Positions 3,458 to 47,862 of a stretch of 64,000 bases of DNA are shown here, one piece after another. The first letter of the stretch is position 1; every line of letters begins with the position of its first letter. A program made the position numbers and the translations under genes. Under the pieces are notes generated by a model. That model saw nothing but the letters and a program-made list of their open reading frames with translations. It did not search any database and was not told the origin of the DNA. Source of the stretch: Chlorobiota bacterium (GTDB taxonomy: Bacteria > Bacteroidota > Ignavibacteria > Kapaibacteriales > NICIL-2); the NCBI GenBank assembly GCA_026415505.1, contig JAOAGY010000032.1, positions 294,159 through 358,158 of the forward strand, read 5' to 3'.

Positions 3458-4986
3458 TGCCGATCGCATATCAAGGGGAAATCACGATTGTTCGCGGGCG
3501 CATAGCGGCTCTCGATCCGAAACCGGGAGCTGTTGTTCTTCGCCTCGATGGTCGGCGAGTCGAGTTTCCCGATGCATGGGCATTTCCAGGACTGGTCGAC
3601 GCACATGCGCACGTCGTTGGGCTCGGTCTTGCCCAACGCGAGGGCTACCTTCGGGGTGTCGCCTCGAAGGAAGAATGCATCGAACGTGTTCGATCGGCAC
3701 GAACGCAGCGTGGTGAGTGGATTGTTGCTCGTGGGTGGAATCACGAACTGTGGTCACCTCCAGCTTTGCCGTCGGCAGCCGATCTCGACTCGGCATTCCC
3801 CGATGTCCCAGTTGCACTCAAGCGAGTTGACGGTCATGCTTTGTGGGTGAATTCTCGCGCTCTCGAAATCGCAAGCATACATGCTGCGACGCCCGATCCC
3901 CCAGGTGGTGCGATTCTCCGCAGCGACGATGGTCAACCTACCGGCATTTTACTCGACACAGCGATGGAACTCGTCGAGCGTTTCATTCCTCCACCGTCAC
4001 TGGATGACATCGAGAGGGCAATTCTGATCGCGACCGAGCTATGCAGTCGAGCTGGGCTGACGGAAATTCACGACATGGACGTCGAACCGAGCCATTTACC
4101 GATCTTCACAACACTGGCGGAAAACGGTCGGCTTCACTGCCGCATTCTTTCGTGGGTCCGGGGACAGAACCAAGAGTGGCATACCGCTGGGGTTCTCCCG
4201 ACTGTCGGTGAATTGCATCGCGTCGTCGGGGTCAAGCTGTTTGCCGACGGCGCACTCGGCAGTCGCGGCGGAGCACTTCTCGTCGAACCGTACTCGGACG
4301 ATCCGACAACGAGCGGTCTTTTGCTGCTCGACCGCGAAACGATCGTCGCCCGCATCGAGCGAGCGCTCGACGACGGCTTCTCTTCCATCGCAGTCCACGC
4401 AATCGGCGATCGTGCGGTGCGGGTCGTGCTGGACGCGTTCGAAGAGATTCGCAGCCGCTATCCCCACTCCGACGATGTGCGCTTGCGAATCGAACACAGT
4501 CAAATCGTTCATCCCGACGATCTGTCGCGATACGTCAGCGCCGGTGCAATCGCTTCGGTGCAGCCGATTCACTGCACAAGCGATGCAGCGATGGCGCAGC
4601 GCCGGCTCGGAGATCGAACGCGCAATGCGTACCGCTGGCGTTCATTCCTCGATCATGGCGTCCTGCTCTGCGCCGGTTCTGATTTTCCCGTCGAATCGCA
4701 CGATCCACTGCTCGGTATCGAAGCATTCTGCCGACGCATCCCGCCTGGATTCGACACGGCGTGGCATCCTGACGAACGGCTCAGCCGCAGCGATGCACTC
4801 GATGCATACACGATCGGCGCACATCGCGCTGCCGATACGAGCTATCGCCGTGGACGAATCGCGGTCGGTTTGGATGCGGACATAACGATCGTCGATCGCG
4901 ACTTAGAGACCTGCCTGGACGACGAAATCACCGCCACACGTACATTTGCGACCGTCGTTGCCGGAACACTCTACCTGCACGAATGA
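3457..4986 (+). CDS. Amidohydrolase family protein (YtcJ-like, metal-dependent)
   Basis: 509 aa. N-terminal metal-binding HxH (VDAHAHVVGLG). Overall layout resembles the Amidohydro_3 family. Translationally coupled to the genes on either side. Confidence 0.75.
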   Translation: MPIAYQGEITIVRGRIAALDPKPGAVVLRLDGRRVEFPDAWAFPGLVDAHAHVVGLGLAQREGYLRGVASKEECIERVRSARTQRGEWIVARGWNHELWSPPALPSAADLDSAFPDVPVALKRVDGHALWVNSRALEIASIHAATPDPPGGAILRSDDGQPTGILLDTAMELVERFIPPPSLDDIERAILIATELCSRAGLTEIHDMDVEPSHLPIFTTLAENGRLHCRILSWVRGQNQEWHTAGVLPTVGELHRVVGVKLFADGALGSRGGALLVEPYSDDPTTSGLLLLDRETIVARIERALDDGFSSIAVHAIGDRAVRVVLDAFEEIRSRYPHSDDVRLRIEHSQIVHPDDLSRYVSAGAIASVQPIHCTSDAAMAQRRLGDRTRNAYRWRSFLDHGVLLCAGSDFPVESHDPLLGIEAFCRRIPPGFDTAWHPDERLSRSDALDAYTIGAHRAADTSYRRGRIAVGLDADITIVDRDLETCLDDEITATRTFATVVAGTLYLHE

Positions 4987-44711: not shown

Positions 44712-44781
44712 GCGGCGTTTCTGCGGTAGGCACCGGCACGCTCTATTTTTGCGGCACGCGTTACATCCGGTTCACTGTGGC

Positions 44782-45291
44782 ATGTCACTACAGGTTGCGC
44801 TGTTTTTCCTGTTCGGTATCGGTGCGATCGCAACGGCGATAGGAACGATCACGCGACGCAATCCGGTCGCTGCTGCGGTCAATTTGATCGCGCACTTTTT
44901 CATGCTCGCCGGTCTCTACCTCACGCTCGAAGCACAACTGCTTGCGGTGCTTCAAATTCTCGTCTATGCCGGCGCAATCATGGTGCTGGTCGTGTTCGTG
45001 ATCATGCTTCTCAACTTGGGCGACGACCGAGCGCTCCGCGAGCAGTTCACGGTGCGAAAAGTCGTCGGTGTCGTGCTGGCTGCAATGTTCATGCTCCAAG
45101 TCGGCGTGTTGATCAATGCGCAGCCGACAGGTGCGACGTCGCTCGCGCCGACGGCAGCATCGCTCGGCACCGCCGAGAGCATCGGACAGGCACTGTTCAC
45201 GCAGTACCTTTTCCCCTTCGAGGCGATTTCATTGCTGCTCCTGGCTGCGCTGGTGGGAGCAATCATCTTGGCAAAACGCAAAGTCGAATAA
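44782..45291 (+). CDS. nuoJ: NADH-quinone oxidoreductase subunit J
   Basis: 169 aa. Five-TM pattern with [22 protein letters not shown], typical of NuoJ/ND6. Confidence 0.8.
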
Positions 45292-45304
45292 CCTGGCAAT
45301 TCCG

Positions 45305-45619
45305 ATGAATCTGCAGAGCATTCCACTCGATTGGTACTTGATCGTCGCAGCGGTTCTGTTCACAATCGGCGTCGTCGGTGTCGTCACACGGCGCAATGCT
45401 ATCGTCGTCTTCATGGCGATCGAGATGATGCTCAATTCGGTGAACTTGGTGTTCGTCAGCTTTGCGCAGTTCCTCGGCGACATTGCCGGACAAATCTTCG
45501 TGCTCTTTGTGATGGCAGTCGCTGCAGGGGAAGCTGCTATCGGGCTTGCAATCGTGCTGGCGCTGTTTCGCAACAAGCGCACCGTGTACGTCGACGAGGT
45601 AAACGTCCTCAAATGGTGA
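45305..45619 (+). CDS. nuoK: NADH-quinone oxidoreductase subunit K
   Basis: 104 aa. [48 protein letters not shown] is typical of NuoK/ND4L. Confidence 0.85.
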
Positions 45620-45661
45620 CACGAGACACCGCAATCACGGCGGTGTATCGAGCAGAGGTAA

Positions 45662-46050
45662 GATGCCGAAACAAGTTCGGCATGACTACAGAGAGAACCG
45701 TCACCCTGAACTCGTTTCAGGGTCCCGCCGCATTCCTTGTCACCCTGAACTCGTTTCAGGGTCTCGTCCCCATGTGCAGGAGATGCCGAAACAAGTTCGG
45801 CATGACTACAGAGAGAATCGTCACCCTGAACTCGTTTCAGGGTCCCGTCTCCACGTGCAGGAGATGCCGAAACAAGTTCGGCATGACTACAGAGAGAACC
45901 GTCACCCTGAACTCGTTTCAGGGTCTCGTCCCCACGTGCAAGAGATGCCGAAACAAGTTCGGCATGACGTAAGCGGAATGTCACCCTGAACTTGTTTCAG
46001 GGTCTTTCCCCCGACGTGCAAGAGATGCCCAACCAAGTTCGGCATGACGA
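45662..46050. repeat. Tandem array (about 4.5 copies) of an 80-81 bp composite unit containing two distinct perfect 8-bp-stem hairpins
   Basis: Hairpin A is ATGCCGAAacaagTTCGGCAT, starting near 45662, 45782, 45863, 45944 and 46024 (the last copy degenerate). Hairpin B is ACCCTGAActcgtTTCAGGGT, starting near 45700, 45739, 45820, 45901 and 45980. Intervening segments are conserved (tacagagagaaccgt; tcgtccccacgtgcagg), so these are not unique spacers. Confidence 0.85.
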
Positions 46051-46209
46051 GCACAGCCACTAAATCCATTCGATTCAGCGCTGATTTCATAACTTGCATC
46101 CCGCACTGACACGCAGCATTTCCGCTACTGCCTGCATTCAGTGACACCGATCGGCTGCCCCGCCGCAGATGCAGGCGGTGGAATCGTATCCATTCGGAGT
46201 ACCTTCGCT

Positions 46210-47836
<1,627 letters not shown>

Positions 47837-47862
<26 letters not shown>

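Follow-up and report, generated by a model that had tools for sequence, protein, structure and literature searches.

A strain-variable array of alternating hairpins in the nuoK-pyrG spacer of a Chlorobiota bacterium matches CGTC-tagged palindromic repeats

The spacer between nuoK and pyrG in the genome of a Chlorobiota bacterium contains a real, well-formed array of ten hairpins. By the published rules for these repeats and by one shared peptide, the hairpins match the CGTC-2 type of the CGTC-tagged REP superfamily. We think it probable that the array is a BIME-like tandem cluster of CGTC-2 elements, that is, of Ssn-class single-stranded DNA (ssDNA) hairpins, and that it is resized by slippage or unequal recombination. 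The repeat family itself has been published, and to this the present analysis adds, incrementally, the clustered organisation and a suggestive link to particular Ssn clades. Here, “the window” refers to the whole stretch of 64,000 nucleotides (64 kb) that was analysed, and positions are numbered from its first nucleotide.

Anatomy of the array

The spacer is 590 bp long (45620-46209) and separates two co-directional genes, nuoK (45305-45619, + strand) and the CTP synthase gene pyrG (46210-47862, + strand), both assigned from the Pfam matches of identical or near-identical products. Tandem Repeats Finder reports 3.8 copies of an 81-bp period with 91% matches at 45739-46048. Once the leading A-B part is added to this call, the full array covers 45659-46049 (no strand assigned), and its onset is 40 nt past the nuoK stop. 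It is composed of five hairpins of type A and five of type B in the order A-B-B-A-B-A-B-A-B-A', all with 8-bp stems and 5-nt loops, and the repeat unit is an 81-bp A+B heterodimer. In pattern searches, hairpin A (ATGCCGAAACAAGTTCGGCAT) has exact copies at 45663, 45783, 45864 and 45945 and a copy with two mismatches at 46025, while hairpin B (ACCCTGAACTCGTTTCAGGGT) is exact at 45703, 45742, 45823 and 45904 and has one mismatch at 45983. All matches to both patterns are on the + strand between 45663 and 46045, and the searches found no copy of A or B outside the array within the 64-kb window; the chance expectation for such matches is 0.00 (100 dinucleotide shuffles). Nine of the 19 perfect 8-bp hairpins in the window fall in 45600-46100. 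Repeat finder and pattern searches thus agree on the 81-bp tandem array that a first-pass annotation had described in this spacer.

Written on the tagged strand, each element consists of a four-base tag, the two stem arms with the loop between them, and a short tail. On the - strand, A1 (45659-45687) reads AGTC-ATGCCGAA-CTTGT-TTCGGCAT-CTTA, and A2 (45779-45807) and A3 (45860-45888) both read AGTC-ATGCCGAA-CTTGT-TTCGGCAT-CTCC. A4 (45941-45969, - strand) is CGTC-ATGCCGAA-CTTGT-TTCGGCAT-CTCT, and the degenerate A5 (46021-46049, - strand; CGTC-ATGCCGAA-CTTGG-TTGGGCAT-CTCT), the A' of the array, has one stem mismatch and one loop change. On the + strand, B1 (45699-45727) and B3 (45819-45847) share the sequence CGTC-ACCCTGAA-CTCGT-TTCAGGGT-CCCG, and B4 (45900-45928) reads CGTC-ACCCTGAA-CTCGT-TTCAGGGT-CTCG. 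The remaining two carry the tag TGTC, with B2 (45738-45766, + strand) as TGTC-ACCCTGAA-CTCGT-TTCAGGGT-CTCG and B5 (45979-46007, + strand) as TGTC-ACCCTGAA-CTTGT-TTCAGGGT-CTTT. The B-B duplication noticed earlier at the start of the array is genuine: B2 is oriented like B1 and starts 39 nt after it, and this beginning is kept in all related strains. The last copy had likewise been called degenerate. This holds for the last A, with its two mismatches, but not for the last B, whose CTTGT loop (versus CTCGT in the other B elements) is the family consensus and not a sign of decay.

A and B as one element in two orientations

The two hairpins, which had been taken to be different, turn out to be the same element: A is 77% complementary to B (repeat finder), and B is an inverted A with compensatory stem changes. 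All ten elements fit a common frame on the tagged strand, consisting of [A/C/T]GTC, A-NNCYGAA, CTYGT, TTCRGNN-T and C in that order, and A and B differ at three stem positions, in a compensatory manner (ATGCC versus ACCCT). The tagged orientation is on the + strand for B and on the - strand for A. Since the two are the same element inverted, each DNA strand carries five tagged-orientation copies (five B on +, five A on -).

Among the B elements the tag is CGTC in three and TGTC in two, and among the A elements it is CGTC in two and AGTC in three. The first stem pair is A-T in all ten, and the second is T-A in A and C-G in B. The first base of the tail is C in 10/10 elements, and the tails begin CCC, CTC or CTT, compared with the consensus CCA; the CCA tail is present in family copies from GC-rich hosts. 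In eight of the ten elements the palindrome is perfect and the tag intact. When folded as ssDNA, each element forms one hairpin (-7.9 kcal/mol for A1 and -7.2 kcal/mol for B1), in which the GTC tag and the C right after the palindrome are unpaired. Neither dimer type folds into one long hairpin; each forms two local hairpins whose tags are unpaired.

Copy number among close strains

Six metagenome contigs encode a NuoK identical to that of the window, and their array lengths differ. At the DNA level, nuoK and pyrG on these contigs share 97-98% identity with the window genes, and identity is 93-98% over the unique spacer sequence. Comparison of this spacer among relatives, one of the checks proposed with the first-pass annotation, shows that the array is shared and comprises 1.5, 2.5 or 4.5 A+B units per strain. 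The corresponding spacers are 345 bp long (A-B-B-A), 424 bp long (one further A+B unit) and, in the window, 590 bp long (three further units). As these lengths occur in near-identical strains, the array is a variable-number tandem repeat that changes in steps of one 81-bp heterodimer. In one strain (L002), several of the array elements are point-mutated. A strain-variable array of this kind could serve as a typing marker for the uncultured population.

No second copy of the family occurs in the six related contigs. In a protein search with the array-encoded peptide, in which arrays of ORF length are detectable, the 81-bp composite unit with these linkers was seen only at nuoK-pyrG; the matches are spurious ORFs at this locus in two of the six related contigs. 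That the composite unit was seen nowhere else fits local amplification and gives no evidence of mobility.

Relation to published CGTC-tagged and GTAG REPs

CGTC-tagged REPs were described by Di Nocera, De Gregorio and Rocco in 2013 (BMC Genomics 14:522; PMC3733652). In these repeats an unpaired CGTC or TGTC tag (or CCTC) precedes an 8-9 bp stem that begins with A-T pairs, followed by a 4-5 nt loop and a short tail with the consensus CCA. Within this superfamily, an 8-bp stem combined with a 5-nt loop defines CGTC-2, whose copy number is in the tens per genome. The repeats are extragenic, located mainly between unidirectional or convergent ORFs near 3' ends, and are mostly inverted heterodimers, with clusters and tail-to-tail dimers being rare. 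Hosts were found in the Alphaproteobacteria, Chlorobi, Bacteroidetes, Spirochaetes and Thermotogae. No transposase was associated with the repeats, and no tyrosine-transposase gene was flanked by them; the authors also argued that many REPs are transcribed, and proposed that the CGTC families are possibly heading to extinction (PMC3733652).

The window array has the attributes of CGTC-2, i.e., the unpaired CGTC/TGTC tag, the 8-bp stem with an A-T first pair, the 5-nt loop, the short unpaired tail starting with C, the extragenic site at a gene 3' end, and heterodimers with different stems. Hosts shared between the published repeats and the family described below are sphingomonads, Gramella/Christiangramia, Sulfurovum, spirochaetes and Chlorobi/Bacteroidetes. 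Hairpin B translates as RHPELVSGS, and a Sulfurovum CGTC-2 element in the published supplement encodes RHSELVSGS (PMC3733652), giving the common signature RH[S/P]ELVSGS. We consider that the hairpins match CGTC-2 on these grounds. Of the candidate roles first put forward for the array, a REP/BIME-like palindromic family is the one that is borne out, with a hairpin of the CGTC-tagged REP type and with alternating orientation and conserved linkers that are BIME-like.

The window differs from the published CGTC-2 repeats in being a ten-element cluster with alternating head-to-head and tail-to-tail junctions, in having CYC/CTT rather than CCA tails, and in having three A copies tagged AGTC. Because clusters and tail-to-tail dimers are rare among CGTC repeats (PMC3733652), the organisation in the window is atypical. 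The lack of a second copy in 64 kb is uninformative, since CGTC-2 has only tens of copies per genome. Rfam gave no match, either at the gathering threshold over the whole window or at E<=10 over the spacer, where only noise (e.g., mir-266) appeared, and literature searches by repeat-encoded peptide words or DNA words returned nothing relevant.

The layout is the same as that of E. coli BIME-2, where Y and Z2 units alternate: two palindrome variants occur in tandem, in alternating orientation and with fixed linkers. As in the E. coli BIME-2 and REPIN/RAYT systems, copy number varies between strains and the sites are extragenic and downstream of genes. In contrast to these systems, the tag of the array is GTC rather than GTAG, and no Y1 transposase association was seen in neighbour clustering. 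GTAG REPs are also lineage-specific, whereas the hairpin sequence of the array is conserved across phyla.

Distribution of the hairpin family

Viral contigs were scanned with the core GAAACAAGTTC-N4-TGAC, and full 8-bp palindromes were counted among the core matches. At least 103 core matches extend to true 8-bp palindromes, and the distribution is clearly bimodal among the matches listed, which sets true elements apart from chance hits. A genome scan with one stringent consensus gave at least 120 stretches carrying at least 185 hairpins. The hosts among the matches listed are Sphingomonadales, many Bacteroidota, Ignavibacteria, Treponema, Melainabacteria, Patescibacteria, Nitrospirota, Nitrospinota, Elusimicrobia, Sulfurovaceae, Firmicutes and one Nanoarchaeota MAG, which widens the known CGTC-2 host range to Patescibacteria, Melainabacteria, Elusimicrobia, Nitrospirota and other groups. 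As the hairpin recurs in viral contigs and in genomes of many phyla, a pure local slippage artefact is rejected. Six genomes are matched twice among the 120 stretches listed, which softly suggests many family copies per genome, and one contig has copies about 15 kb apart (L125/L329); the dispersal seen here is that in genomes other than the one the window comes from.

The G at position -1 (on the tagged strand, the C that follows the palindrome) was not imposed by the pattern and is present in 176 of the 185 hairpins listed. Free stem positions 2 and 3 are Watson-Crick paired in 156 of 161 (109 expected) and 153 of 161 cases (68 expected), respectively, among the matches listed, with three pair types at position 3. 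Intergenic sites account for 149 of the 185 hairpins listed (about 80% extragenic), in loci that are 87% coding, and most exceptions among the matches listed are at the edges of crude ORF calls. The 185 hairpins listed include 35 in convergent and 7 in divergent gaps, and the orientation relative to transcription is sense in 28 and antisense in 42 of the matches listed. Inverted doublets with outward-facing tags predominate among the matches listed, often with extra complementary flanks. Units of the ATGCC and ACCCT types alternate in the window, and pairings of this kind also occur at loci in viral contigs and genomes. When the neighbours of the 185 hairpins listed were clustered, no family other than housekeeping genes recurred at three or more loci.

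Alternating tandem arrays are also found in an Ignavibacterium MAG (L166, 1449-1680, period 82) and, as a large array with a period of about 145 bp, in a Melioribacteraceae MAG (L245, 150-870); neither is located at nuoK-pyrG. When the linkers of the window unit are compared with those of the L166 unit, neither orientation scores higher than the other, and the hairpins account for the scores. From these two arrays, the clustered organisation may be typical of Ignavibacteria-like genomes. A different higher-order arrangement is present in a Cryomorphaceae MAG (L187, 3880-4560), where each of four family hairpins, all in one orientation, is located inside a longer composite repeat (160-310 nt) with GGGATCGGGGATCGG-like motifs. 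A Nanoarchaeota MAG (L145, 2672-2740) has a canonical element together with an inverted partner that is degenerate and a hairpin of a second type; the presence of this element on an archaeal-binned contig could be due to horizontal transfer or to a binning error. Singletons between co-directional genes (L127-L246 among the matches listed) have the tagged CGTC form on the sense strand in 22 cases and on the antisense strand in 9, a bias that could relate to lagging-strand template exposure or to an RNA role. For annotation purposes, the family explains a conspicuous repeat and its spurious ORFs (peptides RHPELVSGS and CRNKFGMT), and a compact 27-nt consensus is available for masking it.

Ssn nucleases as candidate partners

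Neisseria dRS3/NTS repeats (CGTCATTCCCGCGMAVGCGGGAATCYRG) are bound by SsnA as ssDNA only (Chenal et al. 2025, Nat Commun 16:2388; PMC11893778); these repeats are CGTC-1. The nuclease SsnA consists of a single GIY-YIG domain and is 94 aa long; its cut falls a few nucleotides 5' of the motif, and RNA is not a substrate. Binding relies most on the C that follows the palindrome, and cutting on the three nucleotides that precede it. The ssn genes are typically flanked by the motif, and SsnA is encoded in 81% of genomes with more than 200 Ssn-related motifs (PMC11893778).

The conserved unpaired bases of the array family, GTC before and C after the palindrome, coincide with the SsnA determinants in 10/10 window elements. 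As in the NTS and NTSvar motifs (CGTCA...TC), CGTCA is followed by a palindrome, TC and a tail. The published Ssn system is also similar in that Ssn-like genes are located between hairpin copies (L222, L247, L248, L294, L318) and that the hairpins form clusters around genes. The stem and loop are different, i.e., YGAA-CTYGT-TTCR in the window family versus TTCCCGCG-MAV-CGCGGGAA in NTS. The published string HGTCWYN(0-2)YYVSBRHN(0-5)WNVSBRGN(0-2)RNCYNB has no match in the window on either strand; it misses A, B and two common variants, while the NTS control matches. Because this string misses GAA-CTYGT-TTC hairpins, surveys based on it would not count the family.

In the genome scan, a small GIY-YIG protein, recognised by Pfam PF01541 only, is encoded in 4 of the 120 hairpin loci listed. 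In one of these arrangements (L222), a hairpin doublet ends 4 nt before the GIY-YIG ATG and a single hairpin is located about 20 nt past the stop; elsewhere, a canonical copy is located about 20 nt upstream of the gene start (L164), or variant copies that share the stem are found on either side of the gene (L133). The loci that pair the hairpin family with a small GIY-YIG gene are L222, L164, L133, L247, L248, L262, L283, L294, L301, L318, L322 and L329. Among 80 metagenome loci encoding relatives of these proteins, 67 have a GTC-tagged perfect hairpin within 300 nt of the gene, and since most of these hairpins are canonical NTS, the relatives belong to the Ssn family. The hairpin family of the array itself is found near the Ssn homolog in 8 of the 80 loci, on both sides in four of them, including the two closest relatives of the L222 protein. 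Its density in the metagenome loci is 0.43/kb within 300 nt of Ssn homologs versus 0.012/kb beyond, a difference of about 35-fold. In a neighbour-joining tree, all nine homologs flanked by the family fall in two clades. At L318, where the GC content is 38.6% versus 58.1% in the window, arrays of ATGCC and ACCCT stems, the two types seen in the window, are found on either side of the ssn gene.

One homolog shares 71% identity with the L222 protein and has NTS-type hairpins, not the family of the array, at its flanks, so specificity may be loose, or the pairing partly coincidental. A protein search of viral contigs seeded with clade 2 gave mostly NTS-associated homologs, with the hairpin family at one of 35 loci; the contig of that locus also carries hairpin copies about 15 kb away. 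With only one such locus, the search does not strengthen the sub-family pairing. Neither the 64-kb window nor any of the six related contigs has a GIY-YIG ORF. Overall, these sequence comparisons make the general link between Ssn and CGTC repeats solid and are suggestive of a pairing of the hairpin sub-family with particular Ssn clades. We infer that the sub-family would be cut by the neighbouring Ssn homologs, and that the organism of the window may encode an Ssn.

A further-reaching proposal is that GAA-CTYGT-TTC (CGTC-2) is the cognate substrate of the two Ssn clades, missed by the published motif, and forms a cross-phylum GIY-YIG counterpart of REP/RAYT. We put this forward tentatively, as plausible and still somewhat doubtful. 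If it is true, alternating arrays would expose cleavable sites on both strands when the locus is single-stranded, and such arrays would be hotspots for changes in copy number and might also act as barriers against incoming ssDNA. The comparisons give in-silico evidence for a link between CGTC-2, which had no known mobilising or processing enzyme in 2013, and the Ssn nucleases; should this be confirmed, the Ssn clades concerned would become candidate sources of new ssDNA-cutting specificities.

Two other arrangements were noticed near Ssn homologs. In four viral contigs (L339, L355, L357, L358), a further CGTC-tagged hairpin type occurs within 300 nt of the homolog and has a 10-bp GC-rich stem with the same CTTGT/CTTGA loop (e.g., CGTCATGCCCGGCCTTGTGCCGGGCATCCA). 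In Lacinutrix venerupis (L207, about 1940-2050), the homolog is preceded by another CGTC-tagged long inverted repeat, CGTCACTGCGAGGCACGAAGCA...TGCTTCGTTCCTCGCAATGAC.

Proposed origin of the array and alternative explanations

In the explanation that we favour, Ssn-class elements would have been seeded at the nuoK 3' end as an A/B heterodimer, and the array would then have expanded and contracted in 81-bp steps via replication slippage or unequal recombination between units. When the locus is single-stranded, each element would fold alone, with the GTC tag and the following C unpaired. Hairpins of this class would be the recognition sites of small GIY-YIG Ssn nucleases, which would bind ssDNA only and nick it a few nucleotides 5' of the tag. 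An effect on nuoK or pyrG expression, for example through RNA hairpins in a 3' UTR, would be secondary, if there is any.

Alternatively, the elements might be genuine CGTC-2 copies in a lineage without an active partner nuclease, so that the array would be a neutral, decaying remnant whose length changes by 81-bp slippage only. Such a relic would agree with the lack of an ssn gene and of any other copy in the 64 kb and related contigs, with the confinement of the composite unit to nuoK-pyrG, with the degenerate last A and the several point-mutated elements of strain L002, and with the suggestion that CGTC families may be disappearing (PMC3733652). However, 8/10 elements are perfect palindromes with intact tags despite 2-3% coding divergence between strains, the absent second copy says little for a family with tens of copies per genome (PMC3733652), and most genomes rich in Ssn-related motifs do encode SsnA (81%; PMC11893778). 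On balance, we regard a relic as somewhat unlikely. The array might also be transcribed with nuoJK or pyrG, and the main role of its hairpins might then be to stabilise a 3' UTR, to act as an attenuator or to form an array of structured small RNAs. Folding of both strands, which had also been proposed as a check, shows that the spacer folds far better than shuffled sequences (z = -5.3 and -6.7). The preference for gene 3' ends (35 convergent versus 7 divergent gaps) and the mild strand bias of singletons between co-directional genes (22:9), both among the matches listed, are in line with a role in RNA, as is the argument that many REPs are transcribed (PMC3733652). Even so, this role is unlikely: family members occur in both orientations to transcription (28 sense and 42 antisense among the matches listed) and alternate strictly in the window, the spacer has no Rfam match even at E<=10, scans for promoter-like and terminator-like sites found none in it, and the bases that are conserved and unpaired coincide with the determinants of an ssDNA nuclease, with SsnA being inactive on RNA (PMC11893778). 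The small-RNA array suggested at first has gained no support from these orientations or from Rfam.

The conserved linkers and alternating orientation of the array resemble BIME-2, and the array might be a set of protein-binding sites on duplex DNA with a role in chromosome organisation. Binding of gyrase, IHF or nucleoid proteins is among the published roles of E. coli BIMEs. We consider a function of this kind in the window to be very improbable, because the near-perfect covariation of the stems, which is compensatory, argues for pairing within one strand and not for contacts of a dimeric protein with the duplex. The asymmetric tag and tail are also conserved, and the unpaired conserved bases match ssDNA-nuclease determinants, so the earlier idea of a protein-binding site array gained no support. 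Mobilisation of the hairpins by an IS200/IS605-type Y1 (HUH) transposase, as for GTAG REPs, is the kind of process that head-to-head doublets with extended complementary flanks would bring to mind, since they look like REPINs. It is nevertheless hardly credible here: the tag is GTC (GTC-A) and not GTAG, the small GIY-YIG proteins are the only recurrent neighbour family in the neighbour clustering of the 120 loci listed, and no tyrosine-transposase gene is flanked by CGTC repeats (PMC3733652).

Two further assignments, a CRISPR array and an intrinsic terminator, had been dismissed in the first-pass annotation, and we reject both as well. For CRISPR, the repeats alternate in orientation and the linkers are conserved; for a terminator, there is no T-tract, and a terminator scan finds nothing in the spacer.

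Other features of the locus

A GC-rich inverted repeat (ACACCGC-AATCACG-GCGGTGT, 45629-45649) is located 10 nt past the nuoK stop and upstream of A1; it lacks a T-tract and is kept in all related strains. The nuoJ-nuoK pair (44781-45619; 3596-4433 in the related contig L001) is isolated, with an AddB-like nuclease gene on one side, pyrG on the other and no further nuo genes adjoining. The 160 nt between the array and the start of pyrG (46050-46209) are 93-94% identical between strains and join in long-range pairing in the RNA fold, and this segment may be a pyrG leader.
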